Shown here piece by piece: positions 24,358 through 34,557 of a DNA stretch of 64,000 nucleotides. The notes beneath the pieces are model-generated. The model was not told the DNA's origin. It did no database searches and saw nothing but the letters and a program-made list of their open reading frames with translations. Position numbers and translations under genes: made by a program. The stretch spans positions 1,344,001 to 1,408,000 of the forward strand of contig OZ242365.1 of NCBI GenBank assembly GCA_965208905.1, written 5' to 3'. Position 1 is the first letter of the stretch. Every line of letters begins with the position of its first letter. This DNA comes from Nitrosopumilaceae archaeon. Lineage in GTDB: Archaea > Thermoproteota > Nitrososphaeria > Nitrososphaerales > Nitrosopumilaceae.

Positions 24358-24596
24358 ACAACGCTATGCTTTCCTTTTATGTATAAAAGCACCTACTGTG
24401 CATGCTTCTGGTAAGTTAACGTGAGATAGATCATCTTGGAAAGTGAGTGAGATACTTCGAATCTGTCAAAAAGGGTACATGAAACGGGACGGTTAAGAAC
24501 TAAGTACCTCAACACACCTGTTAAGTGGTGGTACCTGAGGGGTTCTGGGATATATTAGGTACATAGAGTGTAGTGTAACAGAAGATCATGAAATCA

Positions 24597-25082
24597 CTAG
24601 CCAGACAACTTATAGTTGGTGTTTTCCTTTAACCATTGTCGGATAGTAGAATGAAGACCCCTCAACTCTGGGTCCCAAAGATACCTTACTGTTTCCTTAT
24701 GTGCGCCTAACTCATCCAATACCATTCCAAAATACGACATCACATGCTGTTTTGTGAGTACACTATCATAGTATAAAGAGGTGACTGTAGTTAGATGATT
24801 GAGGTATTTTACACGTATGAACTTTAAGTTGTCATCTGTCTCAAATGTTTCTTGGTGGGATATCATAGAACACGCTGTGTACAAGTCCTTATCATTATAC
24901 AGCTTCTCCCACAATTTTAGTATGAGATGTGCTGAATCAATCCAGACTCGTTGGTTCAACATATCTTTTTGTTGTTGAACCTGATGTCGGTTTGAGCGCC
25001 ATATCGCAAATGCAACCACCGCACTACCGCAGAATGTAAGTGCCGCAATGATTACGGAGATTGCCAATCCGAGATCAAACAT
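24597..25082 (-). CDS. Hypothetical membrane-anchored protein
   Basis: N-terminal TM helix followed by helical domain. Confidence 0.55.
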   Translation of the reverse strand: MFDLGLAISVIIAALTFCGSAVVAFAIWRSNRHQVQQQKDMLNQRVWIDSAHLILKLWEKLYNDKDLYTACSMISHQETFETDDNLKFIRVKYLNHLTTVTSLYYDSVLTKQHVMSYFGMVLDELGAHKETVRYLWDPELRGLHSTIRQWLKENTNYKLSG

Positions 25083-25481
25083 CTTTGATCAAATCGGTGC
25101 CTAACCATATAAGCATGATGCAGAATGTTTTTTACCCCTAATCGCCATATTATAGTGTGGAACACTTGGAACCCATTATACTTGATTTCTACCTTCATAG
25201 ACAGCACGTAGATTTATCTGAACCCAAACCAGGAGGCAGGCCGGAAAAAGCCATCATGGCAAAACGTACAAAACATATCTACAAGCCTGTTGTTGCCATA
25301 CCTAGTGTTCGCACATAGGTTCTGTAACATCTTGTTTTATCCGGAAATCATGTCGCGCTATATTCTGGTCGTCAGTCATGAATATCATCCTCCATCCATG
25401 TAGGGTTTTGACTTCTTGTTTCAACAGTTGCCTTCTTTTTTTGAAAGAAATTAGTTGATATGTACATAAAAAATAAAAAAG

Positions 25482-26741
25482 TTAGGATGTTGACTTTGCA
25501 GCTGCTTGAATCATGGTAAGCCACTTGTTGTCACCTTCAACGGTGATACCTGCAGCCTCGGCGGGGGTTATCTGGTTTGGGAGTCCAAGGTGTGGGCGTA
25601 CAAAGTTGTGATACAATCGCAATCCAGAGATTATGCTAGAGTCATCCTTCTTCAAACCACGGCACACTTTCTCACGGTGTCGTAGTGTTGCCCCGTTGAA
25701 GGATTCCATTTGGTTGTTATGATGTATGCCATCAAAGGCAACATCATGTATATGCTCGGTCTCTTTGTGCAGAAAGTTCTTTGCTTTATACTGTTGTTTC
25801 CAAGCATGGTGAAAGTTGGCTGCCTTGTCACTAATTAATGTGGTTGGAACTTTACCCGTTACCTTCTTGGCCTGTTTAAACATCGGTGCTACGTCGTCAT
25901 TGCCTTTGTGTTCGGCTACCATCTTGGCTATCCAAAACCTAGTCTCTGAATCAAGCATTGCAAATAGATATTTGCGGTTACCCTTGATTTTCAGGTATAA
26001 TTCATCTGTACGCCACTGTTCACCGACTTGTGGTTTAATCTTGTCAACAAAGGTCTCCATAAGTTCACCATACTGTTTACCCCAATTTTGTATGGTAACA
26101 TGAGTAGTCTTAAGTCCAGTCATTTCAAGGCTGCGGGCAACCTTCCTACTAGATAAGCCGCTAAACAGTAAATCTACAGCCTGTGTAATCTGTTCAGGTG
26201 TGGCTCTCTTGCGAGTGAACCCGACATTATGAGTGAACCGCTTAAGGCAGTCTATACACTTGAACTGCTGAACTGGACCTTTCTTGAACTTTCGTATACC
26301 ACATTTCACTACATTGGTTGACTCACAAAATTTACACTTGGTAAGGTCAACCTGCTTGATAATGATTTTAGGTACTTCCTGTTGTACCGCTTTTCTTATT
26401 CGGCGGCTTATCTCGACTGCATGAATATGCTTGCATATTACACCACGATACATATGATCCGGGCATGAACAAATCCAGCCATGCTCGGTGGATAATACCT
26501 CGTATACTTTATCGGATGATTGGGAACGTACCGTGTATGTCAGGTCGTCTATTCTCGTGATTTGGTTAGATTTACTGACTATTTGAGCGCCCCGTGTTAT
26601 GCGGTCATTGGTGGTCTGTCCAGTCACATTGCCAACTGATATATTGTATAATGGTGTAATATGCTCAGAGTGCAATTCGCTCGTCATTGGGGTTGCTGCC
26701 CCTCTGGCTTTTGTTTTCATCATCGCATTTGTTATTGTCAT
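25482..26741 (-). CDS. DDE transposase/integrase (IS6/IS240-like) with N-terminal SWIM finger and zinc ribbon
   Basis: CSCPD...CKHIHAV; CKFC...CIDC; WRTDELYLKI...AMLDSETRF; LISDK; NNQMESFN; YHNFVRPH...TPAEAAG. Confidence 0.85.
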   Translation of the reverse strand: MTITNAMMKTKARGAATPMTSELHSEHITPLYNISVGNVTGQTTNDRITRGAQIVSKSNQITRIDDLTYTVRSQSSDKVYEVLSTEHGWICSCPDHMYRGVICKHIHAVEISRRIRKAVQQEVPKIIIKQVDLTKCKFCESTNVVKCGIRKFKKGPVQQFKCIDCLKRFTHNVGFTRKRATPEQITQAVDLLFSGLSSRKVARSLEMTGLKTTHVTIQNWGKQYGELMETFVDKIKPQVGEQWRTDELYLKIKGNRKYLFAMLDSETRFWIAKMVAEHKGNDDVAPMFKQAKKVTGKVPTTLISDKAANFHHAWKQQYKAKNFLHKETEHIHDVAFDGIHHNNQMESFNGATLRHREKVCRGLKKDDSSIISGLRLYHNFVRPHLGLPNQITPAEAAGITVEGDNKWLTMIQAAAKSTS

Positions 26742-26816
26742 TAACTACCCTATGGTATAACGATAATATATAGTTATCCCATAGAAGGGTTAAAATAACT
26801 GACATGTGGGTTAAGT

Positions 26817-27047
26817 GTGTTGGGAATTACTAAAAAAACAATCAAGGGTCTGGAATACATCTATTTTGCCTATTATGACGAGACATCAAAATCTAAACAA
26901 TACAAATCGTGTGGGTCTGCTACCAATAAGGAATCTATGATCAAAGCTATATCACTTGAGCGCGAGTATCTGAAGCGACGTAAGAATAAACTAAACGAGG
27001 AAATTACACAGATACAGGAGAAAATAGATGGACTTGCAAAGTTATAA
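26817..27047 (+). CDS. Small basic hypothetical protein, divergent from the transposase
   Basis: KKTIKGLEYIYFAYYD...YKSCG plus coiled-coil tail. Confidence 0.55.
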   Translation: MLGITKKTIKGLEYIYFAYYDETSKSKQYKSCGSATNKESMIKAISLEREYLKRRKNKLNEEITQIQEKIDGLAKL

Positions 27048-27162
27048 TACGAGGCCTACGGCCAAATACGAGGCCTACGGCCAAATACGAGGCCTACGGC
27101 CAAATACGAGGCCTACGGCCAAATACGAGGCCTACGGCCAAATACGAGGCCTACGGCCAAAT
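27046..27162. repeat. Perfect tandem repeat, 6 x 19 bp (AATACGAGGCCTACGGCCA)
   Basis: Read directly; no spacers. Confidence 0.97.
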
Positions 27163-27231
27163 TATACAAGCGGCGCCATACTATACAATACATACAACGC
27201 CTTATCAATTCATCGGAGGCTGTATATGTGA

Positions 27232-28680
27232 ATGTCTGGCATCAAGAACCGGACAATATTCACAGGCGACAACCTAGAGATATTACGTGGCTTTCCAGAT
27301 GAATTTGTTGATTTAATATATCTAGACCCGCCATTTAACTCAAAACATAACTATGCTGCCCCCATAGGTTCTAAGGCGGCTGGGGCTGCCTTCAAGGATA
27401 CGTGGACTTTACAAGATGTGGATGTATCATGGTGGGGGGAGATTGCCGAGACAAACACTGCCCTGTATAAGGCACTAGAGGCAGCCAAACATACAGCAGG
27501 CAAGAGTGCCATGTCCTATCTAATCTACATGGCAATACGCATACTAGAGATGTATCGTATACTAAAGAGTACAGGTTCTATATACTTGCATTGCGACCCA
27601 ACCATGTCTCATTATTTGAAGATGGTGTTGGATTCGATTTTTGGAGTAGTGAATTTTAAGAACGAGATTGTATGGAAACGATCAAAGGGACATCCACTAT
27701 CCATTAAAAAATTTGAAGCAGTAGCAGACTATATCTTAGTTTATCAAAAATCAGGTAACAGTGTTTTCTACCCAGTAAAATTACCAATGGATGAACAAAC
27801 AATAAAAAGAGATTATAGATATAAAGATGAACATGGGCGTTACAGTACATGTTCATTAACAGGTGGCAAGGCTGGCGGTGAATCTGCGTACTTACCATTT
27901 AACGGTGCATTACCATCTTCAGGACGTGGATGGGCGCCACCTACTAGGCAAAAGATACCACAATGGGCAGCAAAAATATTACCTTCAGATTATGAAAAGA
28001 TGAATCAACTTGAAAAATGCCACGCTTTAGATGCTATTGGAATGATAGTATGGTCTGCTAATAACGTGCCTAGATACAAACACTATCTAAAAGACGTTCC
28101 ATACAAACTTGCTAATAGTGTATGGTATGACATAAAATTACTAACCTCCCATTCCAAAGAAAAACTCGGCTACCCCACCCAAAAACCCATAGCCTTGTTA
28201 GAACGTATAATACAAGCCTCTACAAACGAGGGAGATATTGTACTAGATCCGTTTTGTGGATGTGCGACCGCCTGTTCAGCAGCTGAACGGCTAAACCGAG
28301 AGTGGATTGGTATAGACATATCACCAAAGGCGGTTGAGTTGATGAACGCCAGAATGGTCAGCGAGGCAGGGATTGAAAAGTGGACAAAGGGCGCAGGAAT
28401 GGTAATTCAAAGGACGGACATACCAATACGCAAAGGCAATAGATCAAAGAACATAAAACATCAACTATTCGGTATGCAGGAAGGCAGATGTAATCTATGC
28501 AGACATGAAATTGAATTTCGACATATGGAAGTCGACCATGTAATACCAAGGGCCAAGGGTGGACCTGATGATGATGGCAACCTCCAACTATTATGCGGTC
28601 ATTGCAATCGTGTTAAAGGTAAGGGGACAATGGCAGAAGCAAAGGTGAGACTGATCAAGCTGGGAATAGTAGCCCGTTAG
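27232..28680 (+). CDS. N6A/N4C DNA methyltransferase fused to C-terminal HNH endonuclease
   Basis: IYLDPPFN, YPTQKP, VLDPFCGCAT; CNLC...EVDHVIPRAKGG...NLQLLCGHCNRVKG. Confidence 0.9.
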   Translation: MSGIKNRTIFTGDNLEILRGFPDEFVDLIYLDPPFNSKHNYAAPIGSKAAGAAFKDTWTLQDVDVSWWGEIAETNTALYKALEAAKHTAGKSAMSYLIYMAIRILEMYRILKSTGSIYLHCDPTMSHYLKMVLDSIFGVVNFKNEIVWKRSKGHPLSIKKFEAVADYILVYQKSGNSVFYPVKLPMDEQTIKRDYRYKDEHGRYSTCSLTGGKAGGESAYLPFNGALPSSGRGWAPPTRQKIPQWAAKILPSDYEKMNQLEKCHALDAIGMIVWSANNVPRYKHYLKDVPYKLANSVWYDIKLLTSHSKEKLGYPTQKPIALLERIIQASTNEGDIVLDPFCGCATACSAAERLNREWIGIDISPKAVELMNARMVSEAGIEKWTKGAGMVIQRTDIPIRKGNRSKNIKHQLFGMQEGRCNLCRHEIEFRHMEVDHVIPRAKGGPDDDGNLQLLCGHCNRVKGKGTMAEAKVRLIKLGIVAR

Positions 28681-28981
28681 GTCATCGATTTTACACCATC
28701 ACACAGATCACTTTACAAAACCACCATCACACAAATTTGACAGCATATATCACTACACACGTTCTTGACAGTTCCCAAAACGAATTAGGGAATCTATACA
28801 AGGTGCATCTTGGTGATTTGATGTGTAGTGATGTATTGGTGATCTGAACAAGCATGTAAAGGTGACTTCTTACAGAATTTTGACTACTTACTGAATATAA
28901 TTAGTGTGGATGGTTGCGTGTAACTCCCCGACCTATATTCTGACGTAGTGCATGTCCTAAATGGCCTACCCATTTTTTCAT

Positions 28982-29383
28982 TTACCGTATATCTACGGTA
29001 GTTGTAGAATCTGGATTTGAAGAGAAAAGCCAGCCACGGGTTTGAGCTACTACTCTGAGATTCTTAGATATTCTCTTAATTTGACTTTTTGTAGAATTCC
29101 CAAACTCAATGAATGCATGTTCCTCGTATGGTATATGATCATCCACAACATCCAGATTCATGCGTGTACATTCGTTCACGGTCACAGCCATAACCCCGCT
29201 TGATTCTTTGTGTAATGTAGATGTATAATGTTGCCATGCTTTTTTAGCTGTTATTTGATCTCCATCGTAAACTGATAGACGGCACGGATCTCTTGATGAA
29301 GGACGAAATGCTCTAGATCCAGCACGACCTTCTCTAACGAAATTAGGATGAATCTGCCGGTATAGTTGGGTCTCACCATTCAT
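28982..29383 (-). CDS. Hypothetical protein, possible ART/RES-like fold
   Basis: LYRQIHP...AFRP...LSV...HAFI pattern. Confidence 0.5.
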   Translation of the reverse strand: MNGETQLYRQIHPNFVREGRAGSRAFRPSSRDPCRLSVYDGDQITAKKAWQHYTSTLHKESSGVMAVTVNECTRMNLDVVDDHIPYEEHAFIEFGNSTKSQIKRISKNLRVVAQTRGWLFSSNPDSTTTVDIR

Positions 29384-30507
29384 TTCAACATCTCTTTCAT
29401 GGAGCGTATTTGGTTAGCCACCCATTCCCAACTATCCTGCTTGTTAAGATCTAATACCGTCTCATCACTGGAATTAGTACTAACATCATACCAACTCCAT
29501 TCGCCACTATGCTTTACAAGATCTACCTCTAGGCTAATTTCCCGTTTACCTATACTCCATTCTAAATCAAGATCACCCTTGGGAGTGGGGTATATGTGAG
29601 GAAGCACAACATTGTTGGGATAATATTGCTTGAAGATGTCAGATAGCCAATCCAAGCCATCATGACTAGGAGCAACACCTTCACCATTTAACCAACCAGT
29701 TTTCATGGTACGCAGCTCATCTAACTGTACCAATACATCCAGTTTATCCAGTAAATGGATGTGAGTTATTGATTCAATAGAGATACGTCCATCTCGACTG
29801 TGCTGAACAGTACCCTGTATCTGTACTCTTGCATTGTCCTTATATCTGTCGAATGCTTTCATAATGATGTCATAGTAAGGGTCCGGCAGATGGCCTGTAA
29901 CTAACGGACCATAGACCTGTTGTAGACTAAATGTCATGTTTTTTTGATCTATCTTATGCACGGAGCCACGTAGAACTACCTCACTCGCACGCCTAATTGT
30001 GGATGTAAGAGATAGTACCTTATCGCGTATTTTTTTGGTTAGCCTAGCCGGAGTTTGATGCGTGGAGGCAGTCAACTCTAATGTCTCATCATCACGAAGA
30101 TTATGTCCTATATGCTTAAGGTGTTCTAACATGTCATACGATGGAACCTCGTCTGGTGGTAGTTGTTCATCCTGTGCCAGATGCTTAATAGTCTCTACTA
30201 TATACTCTTTCGCACTCTCAAAATATTTTTGGTGTAGTATCTGCCCATCCAATGTCTGTTGTGTTGTGGTGAGTTTGAATACTGGTACGGTGCTTCCACT
30301 TTCAATACTAACTAATTCCAAATCAACTTTACTAAAGTCAGGTGAAGAACGTCTACGATTTGGATTATCTTTTAAATACTGCCATCGCGCTACTTCTATC
30401 ACCATCTCTTGCAGGGCATGCAAGTTGGGAAGAACGTCTTTCGGTATCCCCCCGTTCTTAAATCGCGCTCCATCCAACCGAGGTCGTAAAAAATCTACGC
30501 TTGGCAT
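29380..30507 (-). CDS. Hypothetical protein translationally coupled to 28982-29383
   Basis: 375-aa ORF with ATGA overlap; C-terminal GWLNGEGVAP...HIYPTPKGDLDLEW domain. Confidence 0.65.
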   Translation of the reverse strand: MPSVDFLRPRLDGARFKNGGIPKDVLPNLHALQEMVIEVARWQYLKDNPNRRRSSPDFSKVDLELVSIESGSTVPVFKLTTTQQTLDGQILHQKYFESAKEYIVETIKHLAQDEQLPPDEVPSYDMLEHLKHIGHNLRDDETLELTASTHQTPARLTKKIRDKVLSLTSTIRRASEVVLRGSVHKIDQKNMTFSLQQVYGPLVTGHLPDPYYDIIMKAFDRYKDNARVQIQGTVQHSRDGRISIESITHIHLLDKLDVLVQLDELRTMKTGWLNGEGVAPSHDGLDWLSDIFKQYYPNNVVLPHIYPTPKGDLDLEWSIGKREISLEVDLVKHSGEWSWYDVSTNSSDETVLDLNKQDSWEWVANQIRSMKEMLK

Positions 30508-30845
30508 AAGATCACCAAAACAGGACAGACTTGGTGCGTACTACACAAAAACTTAAACTCGGCTTTCATCTACCCCTCAACACTATATCTACTATAATAA
30601 TCCATACCCGCTTAATCCAATTCAGATTTACCCTTCAATCCTGATGCTGAAAATACAAGAAGAGAACAAAAGATGTGACAGGCCTTGCAGGAAGAGTTCT
30701 GCTACAAAGCAGGAGATTATGTATGTAATAGTTGAAGTTAATTTTTCAAATTTGTATTTTTTAAACATTGTATTTCTCAGATCACTATACTATCATCTCA
30801 CCCACTTTCCAACATATTCTATCTCACGTTAACTTACCAGAAGCT

Positions 30846-31005
30846 ATGTGTCGTTGTTATATCGGCGACACATGTACTCTTCCTGTTGGACCTGAGAGTC
30901 GACAGGAACTGGCCCCTCCGAGGGCGCTTACCAGAATGGCTCAAGGTACGTGAAAAGCTTCAGCCCCTCCGAGGGCGGATGGAAGTTTACCATGGTCAGG
31001 TCCGA
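30846..31005 (+). ncRNA. Candidate IS110 bridge RNA
   Basis: Hairpin 30846-30873; closing stem GGACCTGA/TCAGGTCC; two identical hairpin caps GCCCCTCCGAGGGCG (30912, 30963). Confidence 0.55.
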
Positions 31006-31028
31006 CTATCCACTAAAAAGGAGGTGAA

Positions 31029-32057
31029 ATGAAAAAAAGAATTGCATTACATCGGAATTGACGTACACATGAGAAGATGTGTGGCCACCACCAAGGGAAG
31101 ATCCAAAAAGGTGTTAGACCAGTTTGAGTTCAACAACGACCTGCACGGGATACGTGCGTTCGCCAGCAGAATGCTGCGCCGCGAGTACACGCCGGCGGTA
31201 GCCGTCTTTGAGTCCACCGGTAACTATTGGAAGGTACTCCACAACGAGCTAGAGGAGACAGACATCAAGCCGGTCCTGGTCAACCCGTACGACCTCAAGA
31301 TCATCACTCAGGCAAAGTTTAAGGACGACCGGGTTGACTCTGAGAGGTTGTCCGACCTAGCCAGGGGAGACCTGTATAGACCATCCTACGTTCCCACCCA
31401 GAAAGAGATGGACCTGCGCGAGCTTACCCGCACCCGCCTGGATTTGCGGTACGACGCCACCGAACACAAGAACCACGTGCACGCTATCCTGACCAAATAT
31501 CCGCTCAAGAGGCCCCCGAATATCTACACGGCCAAGGGTATGGAATGGCTGCAGACCGCACCCGTCCGGAACTACGACCGAATGGCGCTTGACTCCCACC
31601 TGTATATCCTTAATGCTACCGAGAGACGCATATCCCTGCTGGAAAAGGAGATCTGCAGGATAGCCATCTTTGACCCGCGGGCCCGTCTTATGATGACCAT
31701 GCCCGGGGTGGGACCGGTCACCGCGGTGACCGTCCTGGCGGAGATAGGGGACACAGGCCGGTTCGCCAGGCCTGAGCAGCTGACCGCCTACGCGGGTCTG
31801 GTGCCGTCCCACAGGAACAGCGCAGACACAGTCCGGACCGGCGGCATCACCAAAGTCCGGATCCCGCTGGCTCAGGAACGCGGCCGTAGAGGCGGCGTTC
31901 GTGGCTGTCCGGCACGACCCATACCGCAAGGGTAGATACGAGCGACTGGCCGCCAGGAGAGGCCCGCAGAAGGCTCGGGTCGCCGCGGCTCGGGAGATGC
32001 TAGAGGACATGTGGTACATGCTGACCAGGAACGAACCATATAACCATCCCAACTAAA
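31029..32057 (+). pseudogene. IS110 DEDD transposase, frameshifted
   Basis: YIGIDVH, FESTG, KDDRVDS, MTMPGVGP, YAGLVPS; frame changes near 31855 and in the A7 run after the SD-preceded ATG at 31029. Confidence 0.85.
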
Positions 32058-33439
32058 CCATGACCAACCGCAAGATGACCAACGCCAGGCGCGTGGCCAA
32101 CCGGGATATTGCCTAGGGTATACCGGTTCGGGGGCGTTTCGCCGCCCCCTGCCCAGCGAGGGGCGGCTCAACGCCCTTTGTACCTCCCCGCCGTCTGGTT
32201 GCTCAAAAATAATGCAGTAGAAAGCCAACCATCTGCAACTTCACGGGGTTAACACCTGCCCTTTTCCCCGGGGACGCGTGGGGGATTCTGCGCACCATAA
32301 TTTCCTATACGCCCGCAATCCACTTGGAACATACACTCAAACCACTTTGGATGGGGTTTACATACTGTATAATGCCGTATTGGTGCCCCCATCTTGCAAA
32401 AAGATACTCTAATACTTAAAAATCAGACAGACCCATACCATTTGGACCGGATCAAATGTATTACCAACACATAACATCAATGGGTTTTAGCAACCCAAAC
32501 ACATGGAAGTTCCCTGTGCATATAGCGTGTGATGCAAAAATTTGCTTCGGAAGGCTCAAGCCAAGGCTCACAGGGGTTCATAACCGACGATACAGCAAGA
32601 TATGCTATATAATCCAAGCAGCCCCACAGACTTTATGGAGGGTTAGAACAAAAACCAGATGTAAAGTAGGCCCGCTGAAGTATATTCGCCGGCGCGTTGG
32701 AATCGGCGCAGTCGCCCACATGATATGCATGAACACAATTCGTTATTTTGACTCTTCCTGCCTATACACGTAGCATGTCTGGCTGGCCGTTCAACGACTC
32801 AGTTATACACAAAGCGCTGTACATGCCATATATCGCCGATACGGCGTGCTTGCGAATCATACGGAATCCGATGTAGTACATGGCATTGTATCACTCTTAA
32901 AAATGTGGAGTTTTGGTTTTCGATATGTCCGGTTAAGTATGTTATTTCCGCAATCTTGCACGCGCAGATTATATACGGTATGCGTGTTGGAGTATGTACA
33001 TAACATGGTGACCTCCACAACTCAACAGGGGGAAAGACATCTGGAGTATACTAAAAACCAAACCATCATGGTGTCCGGTTGTACAGGATTTATTGGATCC
33101 CATCTTACAACAAGACTCTCTTCAATGGGATACTCTGTGCGCGGCTTGACAAGAAAGGACATGAATGATCATGACAATATCACATATGTGAAAGCAGATG
33201 TCTTTGATCTTCCAAGTCTGACTAGTGTCATGAAAGGGGTGGATGTGGCATATTACCTACTTCATTCCATGGAGGGTGGCAAAGGTGACTGGCAAGACTT
33301 TGCCAAGAGGGAGAAGGAACAAGCTATGAACTTTCTTCAGGCCGCAAATACATCAAATGTCAAGAGAATCATATATCTTGGATGGAGTGGACCCCATAGA
33401 ATGTTACTGTTTTCGGCATGATTTTACATACATCTTCCA

Positions 33440-34300
33440 TCATTTATTTGTCATCTCCAACTGTTCGGCAAATTCTACTGGTGTCATGTATCCGATAGAG
33501 GAATGAATCCTCTCGGTGTTGTAATCTACAAAGGCCTTTGCAATGATCGTCTCTGCCTCCTGATAGTTCGCAAACTCGTGCGGCCAGATGTATTCCTTTT
33601 TCAGCGTCTTGTGAAATGATTCGACATGTCCGTTCTGCTCCGGCGTATTCTTGTAGATGAATTCATGTTTGCCGATGCCAAGGGCCTGAACCGCATGTCT
33701 AAAGTCGCGGCTCGTATACTGGTTGCCGTTGTCCGTACGCAATCGTAATTGTGAGCAGTCAGGTTTCTCTGCGGCAACCGCGTTGGTGATTGAGGTGATT
33801 GCAATGTCTCGTGTGGCATTGACATCAAACGCGTAGGCGATCCACTTGCGCGTAAAGCAGTCAATTACGTTGAAGCAGTAGCACCAGCCGTCTATACCGC
33901 ACCAGATGTATGTGATGTCCGTCTCCCACAACTGGTGTGGGGCTTTGGGTTTGAAGAGCTTTTGACCCGCTCGAATGATGTCGTTTTTGGTATTTTGTGG
34001 CTGGATGTAGCCCATTTTGCGATATATCCGCTGTATCTGCTTGCGGTTCACCACAATTCCCGTATCGCGCGTTATCTGGGCCGCCATGCGCCGTGTGCCG
34101 TACGTGGGCCTCTTTCTGCTCGTATCTAGCACAGTGCTCAATATATCCGGATTCAATCCCATGTCTCTGGGCTTGGGTTTGTAGTACCATTGGCGCCTGG
34201 ATACGCCCGCATACCCTAGCGACTTGCGCAGGCTCAAATGTTGTTCCTGCATGATTTTTACCGCGTTCAATCGTTGCTTGCCTCCAAGGTTTTTTTTAAA
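33440..34300 (-). CDS. IS3 OrfB (DDE), probably reached by -1 frameshift
   Basis: YGTRRM, WETDITYI, VIDCFTR, RTDNGNQY, NGHVESFH; slippery TTTAAAAAAAAC at about 34289-34300. Confidence 0.88.
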   Translation of the reverse strand, partial: FKKNLGGKQRLNAVKIMQEQHLSLRKSLGYAGVSRRQWYYKPKPRDMGLNPDILSTVLDTSRKRPTYGTRRMAAQITRDTGIVVNRKQIQRIYRKMGYIQPQNTKNDIIRAGQKLFKPKAPHQLWETDITYIWCGIDGWCYCFNVIDCFTRKWIAYAFDVNATRDIAITSITNAVAAEKPDCSQLRLRTDNGNQYTSRDFRHAVQALGIGKHEFIYKNTPEQNGHVESFHKTLKKEYIWPHEFANYQEAETIIAKAFVDYNTERIHSSIGYMTPVEFAEQLEMTNK

Positions 34301-34557
34301 GCGTCGTTTGCGATTGTCAGATCCCCTATGATTCGCTTTAGGTCGCCGTTCTCCTTTTTGATGGCCTTTATCGGATCCTTCTTTCCGTGATGGGTCAGTC
34401 CGGACTTGCCTGCGTCCATGAACTTTTGCCGCCAGGCTTGAAACGTTTGGGGATGAACGTTGTGCTTGCGGCACAGCTCGGCCGTGCCAATATTGGTCTT
34501 GATTGATTCCAAAACGATCTGGATCTTTTGGTCTGGAGTAAACTTTGTTCTTACCAT
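34267..34557 (-). CDS. IS3 OrfA (HTH)
   Basis: KFTPDQKIQIV...ELCRKHNV...WRQKF...ENGDLKRIIG. Confidence 0.88.
   Translation of the reverse strand: MVRTKFTPDQKIQIVLESIKTNIGTAELCRKHNVHPQTFQAWRQKFMDAGKSGLTHHGKKDPIKAIKKENGDLKRIIGDLTIANDALKKTLEASND

Follow-up and report, generated by a model that had tools for sequence, protein, structure and literature searches.

We analyzed a 64,000-nucleotide (nt) stretch of the genome of a Nitrosopumilaceae archaeon, a marine ammonia oxidizer (assembly GCA_965208905.1, contig OZ242365.1, positions 1,344,001 to 1,408,000), here called the window; coordinates are those of the window unless marked as genome coordinates. Positions 30841 to 32507 very probably constitute a 1.67-kb insertion sequence (IS) of the IS110 family whose 5′ noncoding RNA guides insertion into the tip of a terminal inverted repeat (TIR) of an IS6-like transposon. 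Comparisons among copies, relatives, and empty sites establish the boundaries of the element, its target, the host transposon, the structure of the RNA, and the covariation of guides with flanks. Beyond this, we infer transcription of the RNA, its binding by the recombinase, a circular intermediate, and loss of function at the invaded end of the host transposon. RNA-guided recombination by IS110-family elements is already established (PMC11208160, PMC11208158, and PMC11187229), and the element reveals no new mechanism. A sequence-only reading of this DNA had proposed an archaeal IS110-family element with a noncoding RNA programmed against the end of another transposon; the copies, their TIR-like flanks, and the guide-flank covariation support that central proposal, and several of its coordinates are revised below.

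Copies and an empty site define the element

A BLAST search of the window's own genome found three full copies of the IS and one partial copy, as follows.

c1: in the window
c2: genome 1695404 to 1697085, 100% identical to c1 over 1682 bp, at another site
c3: genome 1908851 to 1907161, 96% identical
c4: a left-end fragment of 215 nt

Similarity among the full copies spans ~30833 to 32513/14. In a genome of the same genus (G008), the site of c2 is empty and reads ...GTTTCTTACCAGTTCCTAATG... (in a longer reading, ...GTTACAGTTTCTTACCAGTTCCTAATG...), whereas the occupied site reads ...CTTACCAG, then the element, which starts with AAGCTATG and ends with CACATGGA, and then AGTTCCCAATG. This pair gives the target as CTTACC-AG-TTCC, with a 2-bp AG core that is duplicated around the element. 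It places the left AG core at 30839 to 30840 and the first element base at 30841. The resulting features are listed here.

30841 to 32507, + strand: body of the IS110-family IS, copy c1 (1667 bp; ends set by the empty site)
30839 to 30840, + strand: left copy of the core dinucleotide AG, the crossover site (G008 empty site compared with occupied c2)
32508 to 32509, + strand: right copy of the core dinucleotide AG (copy alignment and empty site)
32510 to 32513, + strand: right target TTCC, the outermost 4 nt of the right inverted repeat of the host transposon (copy alignment and empty site)
30844 to 30851, + strand: left subterminal inverted repeat CTATGTGT, whose partner ACACATGG lies at 32499 to 32506; kept in homologues

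CTATGTGT and the reverse complement of ACACATGG are identical at 7 of 8 bases. The element sits at its short AG core with neither terminal inverted repeats of its own nor a long duplication. The left context is CTTACC-AG in three of the four copies and GTTACC-AG in c3, and the right context AG-TTCC is common to all three full copies. Other placements were considered and rejected: an element from 30835 to 32512 with a CT core is ruled out by the G008 empty site, as is an AA core with target TTACCAGAAGTTCC, for which no genomic site with fewer than two mismatches exists.

The sequence-only reading had started the element at 30845, which is off by 4 nt given the core at 30839 to 30840, and had ended it near 32330, ~180 nt short of the point to which all three full copies are alike. 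The motif ATACAC at 32331, which it took for the remainder of the TIR, is internal element sequence common to all three copies; the true remainder is TTCC (32510 to 32513), followed by the 8-bp duplication CTGTGCAT. The inverted repeat between 24404 to 24453 and 30795 to 30844 does hold at 92% identity over 50 nt. The match appears to run to 30844 only because the left tip (reverse complement, ...CCAG-AAGC) shares AAGC with the first four bases of the element. It had suggested testing whether other copies lie in this TIR; all four genome copies sit in a CTTACC-AG-type context (three of them exactly) within TIR-like sequence. Neither finding that it had named as telling against its proposal was made: no copy lies in unrelated sequence, and the boundary, at 30839 to 30841, is not upstream of 30833.

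A predicted structured RNA at the left end carries four guides

The noncoding left end of the element contains the following features.

30887 to 31004, + strand: predicted bridge/seek RNA core, with closing stem P1 (30887 to 30895 paired with 30996 to 31004) around two stem-loops
30896 to 30901 paired with 30937 to 30942: stem P2, closing internal loop 1, which is capped by the hairpin 30912 to 30926
30905 to 30910, + strand: right-target guide GGAACT, 5′ side of loop 1; complementary to top strand AG-TTCC
30927 to 30936, + strand: left-target guide CTTACCAG, extended by 2 nt (AA), on the 3′ side of loop 1; same as the top strand of left target, core, and first 2 element bases
30956 to 30961, + strand: right-donor guide AGCTTC, 5′ side of loop 2; complementary to core G and the element's first bases, AAGCT
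30963 to 30977: hairpin capping the second loop (consensus structure)
30979 to 30985, + strand: left-donor guide ATGGAAG, 3′ side of loop 2; same sequence as the final 5 nt of the element and the core

Guides were placed by the strand rule published for IS621 (PMC11208160), in which the bottom strand is read for the left halves and the top strand for the right halves, core included. The consensus structure was derived from 16 homologous left ends (alignment A2). It has 23 pairs, with 95.9% of 368 cells paired and changes on both sides at 7 of the 23 pairs; slid controls were 22 to 45% paired, and none of 500 shuffles reached the observed covariation score. The window sequence alone folds at −48.7 kcal/mol (z, −2.2; 2 of 200 shuffles equally good). 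Both the single-sequence fold and the consensus show the closing stem and the two hairpin-capped arms of the sequence-only reading. In the second arm, the register of the outer stem varies between subgroups, which makes this stem less certain. The identical 15-mer that it saw capping both arms is also there: GCCCCTCCGAGGGCG occurs at 30912 to 30926 and 30963 to 30977, against 0.00 matches expected in the window.

The 10-mer CTTACCAGAA occurs at 30833 to 30842, at 30927 to 30936, and on the minus strand at 24406 to 24415 (three matches in the window, with 0.07 expected; 0 of 100 shuffles reach three). This confirms the identity between arm 1 and the junction reported earlier. The 10-mer is not a pure TIR copy, however: after 6 nt of left target come the 2-nt core and the two opening bases of the element.

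Covariation of loop and target across homologues, which had been suggested as a check, was found: the loop segment tracks the left flank in relatives with other targets. Eighteen left junctions represent 14 distinct guide classes, in which the left-target guide matches its own flank at 4.86 of 6 variable positions and the flanks of others at 1.91 of 6; 0 of 100,000 permutations reach the observed value. A solo copy at genome 1544682 has a guide-flank match of 9/9. The two guide nucleotides after the core track the first two nucleotides of the element in most classes (AA, AT, and AC), with L032 and L037/L038 as exceptions. The right-target guide matches the right flank with at least 4 consecutive matches in a fixed register in 7 of 10 classes (mean across other pairings, 0.65), again reached by 0 of 100,000 permutations. 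Donor guides covary with the element ends as well. The left-donor guide is ATGGAAG where right ends read ...ATGGA-AG and ATGGGAG where they read ...ATGGG-AG; in diverged relatives, the right-donor guide ATAGTA goes with ...TACTAT and ATAGTG with ...CACTAT.

The sequence-only reading had further named the intact left TIR of the host transposon as a second target. That TIR matches the left-target guide and core at 8 of 8 positions, and at the next 2, but its right half is AAGC, where the guide expects TTCC. It is thus a half-site only, CTTACC-AG-AAGC. Insertion on a half-match has been reported for IS621 in a preprint, so this site could conceivably be used as a target.

A covariance model of the RNA (R1) found it in 18 of 121 sampled Nitrosopumilaceae genomes, which represent 8 of 27 genera, and in up to 16 copies per genome; one genome counted here, G099, is unpublished. 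With an E value of up to 1 and default filters, R1 found no match at more distant homologous loci, namely the Halobellus plasmid, Thermoplasmata, Verrucomicrobiaceae, Polyangia, Planctomycetaceae, and Methanothrix loci. In the present genome, c4 lies ~1.1 kb from a diverged relative, d1 (genome 137800 to 140700; L030), whose RNA guide fits a different flank, TGAACAGAT (9/10 match), and whose recombinase gene has a stop codon.

Other structured or conserved segments accompany the RNA. A perfect 8-bp hairpin at 30846 to 30873 (ATGTGTCG ... CGACACAT) has TTATAT in its loop; relatives show compensatory changes in the stem and keep the TATA-like loop motif. Lying ~25 nt upstream of the closing stem of the RNA, it may act as a promoter element or as a binding site for the recombinase. 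A strongly conserved hairpin at 32130 to 32176 lies directly after the stop codon, in the long 3′ noncoding end; its blocks TTTCGCCGCCCC and GGGCG.CTCAACGCC are near invariant in 8 homologues (down to ~50% protein identity), and its loop is variable. This hairpin may serve as a terminator or bind a protein, or it may be what remains of a right-end RNA. An A/T-rich box, AATAYTTAAAAA, at 32411 to 32422, ~95 nt before the right end, is present in 8 of 8 aligned homologues and could be an outward archaeal TATA-type promoter; in a circle, transcription from it would cross the junction of the ends and enter the guide RNA and the gene.

The host is a member of an IS6-like transposon family

The features of the host transposon are as follows.

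24396 to 24403, + strand: left copy of the 8-bp target-site duplication, CTGTGCAT (from the sequence and the empty site in X5 and X7)
24404 to 24453, + strand: left TIR of the IS6-like host transposon, with tip GCTT; its reverse complement ends ...CTTACCAG-AAGC
25482 to 26741, − strand: IS6-family (DDE_Tnp_IS240) transposase gene (Pfam PF13610; E value, 2.3e-14)
30795 to 30838, + strand: inner part of the right inverted repeat, whose last 6 nt, CTTACC (30833 to 30838), are the left target
32514 to 32521, + strand: right copy of the 8-bp duplication, CTGTGCAT, identical to 24396 to 24403

The transposon spans 24404 to 32513 and measures 6441 bp without the IS110-family insertion, which lies 4 bp from the outer tip of its right TIR. 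Contigs from two metagenomes (X5 and X7) represent its empty site, with the sequence left of 24396 joined to 32514 onward through a single CTGTGCAT. It has a DDE_Tnp_IS240 transposase, terminal inverted repeats, and an 8-bp target duplication, the last being typical of the IS6 family.

The 12-mer CTTACCAGTTCC has 4 exact and 26 one-mismatch sites in the genome. Many of these follow TIR-like sequence composed of two sub-repeats; several form facing pairs, four of which carry perfect 8-bp duplications. Of 13 paralogous loci in this genome, 7 have the IS240-type transposase gene immediately inward of a TIR-like tip. Judged from these sequences, CTTACCAGTTCC is the outer TIR tip of a family of IS6-like transposons with 8-bp duplications. 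Tips in the family read ...CCAG-TTCC, -CCCC, or -AACC, and TCCC also exists. TIR-like sequence also forms the left flank of c2, of c4, and partly of c3, as it does at two further left junctions in the X5 and X7 metagenomes. A 69%-identical lineage in a sister genome (G005) is inserted in the same kind of tip.

The left tip of the host transposon (24404 to 24407) is GCTT, the reverse complement of which, AAGC, is the same as the first 4 nt of the IS110-family element; its right tip is TTCC. AAGC at the left tip is likely chance or a tip variant. An origin as a deletion or excision scar was considered and rejected, as there is no fitting microhomology and tip variants exist in the family.

One exact occurrence of the 12-mer, at genome 497537, reads GGA ACT GGT AAG on the other strand and encodes G-T-G-K of the Walker A motif of an AAA+ ATPase. 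This site and several near-matches in ATPase genes are unoccupied; either insertion needs more than the 12-mer or such insertions are lost.

The cargo of the host transposon includes an N6/N4 DNA methylase fused to an HNH nuclease (27232 to 28680) and two open reading frames without a Pfam match (28982 to 29383 and 29380 to 30507). A TIR-like stretch inside the host, at 28722 to 28775, matches the TIR of another family member, at genome 157876, a match that suggests a nested or composite host transposon. Beyond the host, an IS3-like (rve) transposase gene occupies 33440 to 34474, and ~120 nt at 33380 to 33500 recur at 12 other genome sites with 99 to 100% identity.

The recombinase gene and its relatives

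31042 to 32056, + strand: DEDD recombinase gene; likely start TTG 31042, +1 frameshift near 31854, C-terminal frame 31859 to 32056

The product matches PF01548 (N-terminal DEDD/RuvC-like; 1.6e-23) and PF02371 (C-terminal Transposase_20; 2.7e-17), both above the curated cutoffs. TTG 31042 is the likely start because the A-run at the ATG is unchanged in contigs of other populations. The recombinase, ~340 to 357 amino acids (aa) long in intact relatives, has the motif GL-P----S(G/A); unbroken orthologues of 344 and 357 aa are found in G006 and G015. Since c1 and c2 are 100% identical and c3, at 96%, has the same break, the copies spread after the frameshift arose. With their recombinase gene frameshifted, the three full copies are probably inactive now or dependent on a helper.

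Relatives include Nitrosopumilaceae, Cenarchaeum, and Nitrosopumilus metagenome-assembled genomes (MAGs). Contigs labeled as Poribacteria and Dehalococcoidia MAGs (L032 and L033) encode recombinases that share 91 to 92% identity with the Cenarchaeum copy, and they carry the same RNA with guides that match, which points to binning errors in sponge-type metagenomes or recent transfer. In comparisons that were pairwise only, the recombinase showed ~25% identity to those of IS4321/IS5075 (E value, ~1e-11) and E values of 8e-12 with ISCro4 and 2.3e-10 with the IS621 chain.

Proposed mechanism and alternative explanations

In the mechanism that we propose, a ~120-nt RNA would form a closing stem around two stem-loops, each with an internal loop. 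Loop 1 would read the target. Loop 2 would read the element's own ends, with AGCTTC pairing with the left end and ATGGAAG with the right end and core. The joined ends of the element and CTTACC-AG-TTCC would then recombine at the AG core, which would insert the element in one orientation in a TIR tip, and insertion there should cripple that end of the host transposon.

Several observations weigh against this mechanism. The four exact 12-mer sites, three of them TIR tips and one in the AAA+ ATPase gene, are unoccupied. In contigs of other metagenomes, the sequence at three right junctions is AG-AACC..., to which the guide GGAACT does not correspond, although those copies may carry a different guide. 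Three of the 10 right-guide classes fail: L028 has a truncated left end, L034 has the expected sequence displaced outward by 7 nt, and L050 matches at 5 of 6 positions with a first-base mismatch. The identical +1 frameshift is present in all three full copies, although c1 and c2, being 100% identical, look recent. An Rfam scan of 29500 to 33500 with E values up to 10 found no matching family. Contigs of an RNA run (X23) cover only 31501 to 31899 and 32123 to 32498, with 90 to 95% likeness, outside the guide RNA region. Finally, contigs of four runs contain no circle junction or other joint, although contigs cannot show absence.

Three alternatives would assign the shared sequences differently. 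The anatomy of the sequence-only reading, with the element from 30845 to ~32330, the TIR complete to 30844, and the 10-mer a pure TIR copy, draws on the inverted-repeat match with the left TIR, which stops exactly at 30844. The G008 empty site refutes it, as that site has the AG core and lacks AAGC. The likeness of the three copies for ~180 nt past 32330, the TTCC and 8-bp duplication after 32509, and the other family tips (...CCAG-TTCC, -CCCC, and -AACC), by which AAGC at the left end would be a tip variant, also speak against this anatomy, and we give it almost no credence. The 10-mer at 30833 to 30842 could instead be the element's own left, or donor, end, with a CT core, a donor guide as the loop copy, an element from 30835 to 32512, and no fixed target. 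The outer dinucleotides do resemble duplications (CT/CT in c1, GT/GT in c3, and CT/CA in c2), but the G008 empty site retains CTTACCAG and TTCC in the absence of the element, the RNA segment varies with the flank in relatives while the element ends are constant, and the guides would pair with strands opposite to the published rule; the empty site and the guide-flank covariation refute this arrangement. It is also very unlikely that the recombinase protein or DNA structure recognizes the TIR tip and that repeated insertion or gene conversion merely left the matches behind in the RNA region, where they would have no guide function. The flanks of c1, c3, and c4 are indeed alike beyond the guided 8 nt, as expected if the whole TIR mattered; yet 14 guide classes track 14 flanks, both target strands are matched at fixed positions of a conserved structure, and the extra likeness of the flanks arises because the targets are paralogous TIRs.

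A further possibility is compatible with RNA-guided insertion: the guide system may have worked formerly, and the three copies may be dead or nonautonomous here. We rate this at a little under an even chance. The shared frameshift favors it, as do the sequencing runs, in which the extra base at 31854 is missing in other populations (X5, X7, and X23), whereas in X1, the likely source run, which shows the assembled version, 0 of a depth of 52.9 has a deletion; the exact target sites that are still unoccupied fit it as well. On the other side, the identity of c1 and c2 and the frameshift in c3 imply spread after the break, whether with the aid of a helper, by gene conversion, or through frameshifting when the gene is expressed. 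Other IS110-family genes, at genome 573060 and 1780958, have open frames, though R1 finds no such RNA beside them.

Comparison with known IS110-family systems

The element has both recombinase domains of the IS110 family, inserts site specifically at a short core, and carries a structured end RNA that matches both strands of target and donor. Archaeal members of this family are not new as proteins; a bioRxiv preprint (10.1101/2024.06.21.599552) counts 662 archaeal IS110 recombinases. A literature search on archaeal or Nitrosopumilus IS110 bridge RNAs found no paper on this element; the supplementary bridge-RNA lists of Durrant et al. may already include relatives. What the present comparisons add is comparatively verified natural bridge/seek-RNA targeting in archaea, with four assignable guides and empty sites for both the IS and the victim transposon. 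The compact RNA (~120 nt) and the recombinase (~340 to 357 aa in intact relatives) enlarge the pool of natural programmable recombinases.

Partridge and Hall are said to have described, in 2003, members of the IS1111 group that insert in the TIRs of Tn21-family transposons. Like IS4321/IS5075, the present element encodes a DEDD recombinase, has subterminal inverted repeats, and enters the TIR of another transposon at a single position and in a fixed orientation. It differs in its archaeal host, in its victim, which is IS6-like rather than Tn3/Tn21, in its insertion 4 bp from the tip, and in its guide RNA, which is upstream of the gene rather than downstream. Insertion into the end of another transposon is thereby extended from the bacterial IS4321/IS5075 to ammonia-oxidizing archaea, and the range of victims now takes in IS6-like elements with restriction-modification and methylase cargo. 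ISEc21, of the IS110 group, is likewise an RNA-guided IS that naturally targets another mobile element, but it is described as targeting a conserved coding stretch of IS3-family transposase genes rather than a TIR tip, with the bottom-strand match first (PMC11187229).

With IS621 (Durrant et al. 2024, PMC11208160; Hiraizumi et al. 2024, PMC11208158), the element shares a left-end RNA in which the target loop precedes the donor loop, the strand rule, a 2-bp core, and a recombinase with PF01548 and PF02371, which matches the IS621 chain with an E value of 2.3e-10. The core is AG here and CT in IS621. Within the loops, the right guide precedes the left guide in the 5′-to-3′ direction, opposite to the order in IS621, and one closing stem encloses both loops. 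The subterminal repeats are 8 bp long rather than 2 to 3 bp, the 2-nt extension is on the left-target guide, whereas the handshake bases of IS621 adjoin the right guides, and the 3′ noncoding end is long, at ~450 nt. The reversed guide order and the 8-bp repeats set the element apart from the IS110 group as represented by IS621.

The seekRNAs of the IS1111 group (ISEc11, ISPa11, and ISKpn4; Siddiquee et al. 2024, PMC11187229) are described as having the segment complementary to the top strand 5′ of the bottom-strand segment. The same order is seen here, with GGAACT (30905 to 30910) before CTTACCAGAA (30927 to 30936), and loop 2 is alike. The group is also described as having subterminal inverted repeats, given as 7 to 17 bp (PMC11208160), and recombinases of a similar kind; the present element has 8-bp repeats matching at 7 of 8 bases and conserved in relatives, and its recombinase, ~340 to 357 aa in intact relatives, has the GL-P----S(G/A) motif. 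In IS1111 elements the RNA lies downstream, whereas the guides here (30905 to 30985) precede the recombinase gene; nothing resembling a guide match was seen in the right end, which is also long and conserved. As reported in PMC11187229, ISMtsp17 is an exception with an upstream RNA, and ISHvo10 and ISAcp5 have long noncoding regions on both sides.

Durrant et al. (PMC11208160) propose a move of the bridge RNA between element ends for the IS110/IS1111 split. We regard it as a tentative and rather unlikely extension of our findings that the lineage is a dedicated hyperparasite of the IS6-like transposons of Nitrosopumilaceae, its right-target guide diversifying with their variable 4-nt tips (GGAACT with TTCC here, GGGGCT with ACCC/CCCC-type tips in a 69%-identical lineage), and that its layout (upstream RNA, IS1111 guide order, 8-bp repeats, and conserved right-end hairpin) is a surviving intermediate of that move. 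The layout itself, read from the sequences, is a mixture of the groups: a left-end RNA with the target loop first, as in IS110; the guide order and 8-bp repeats of IS1111; and a long right end. This combination of traits bears on the divergence of both groups.

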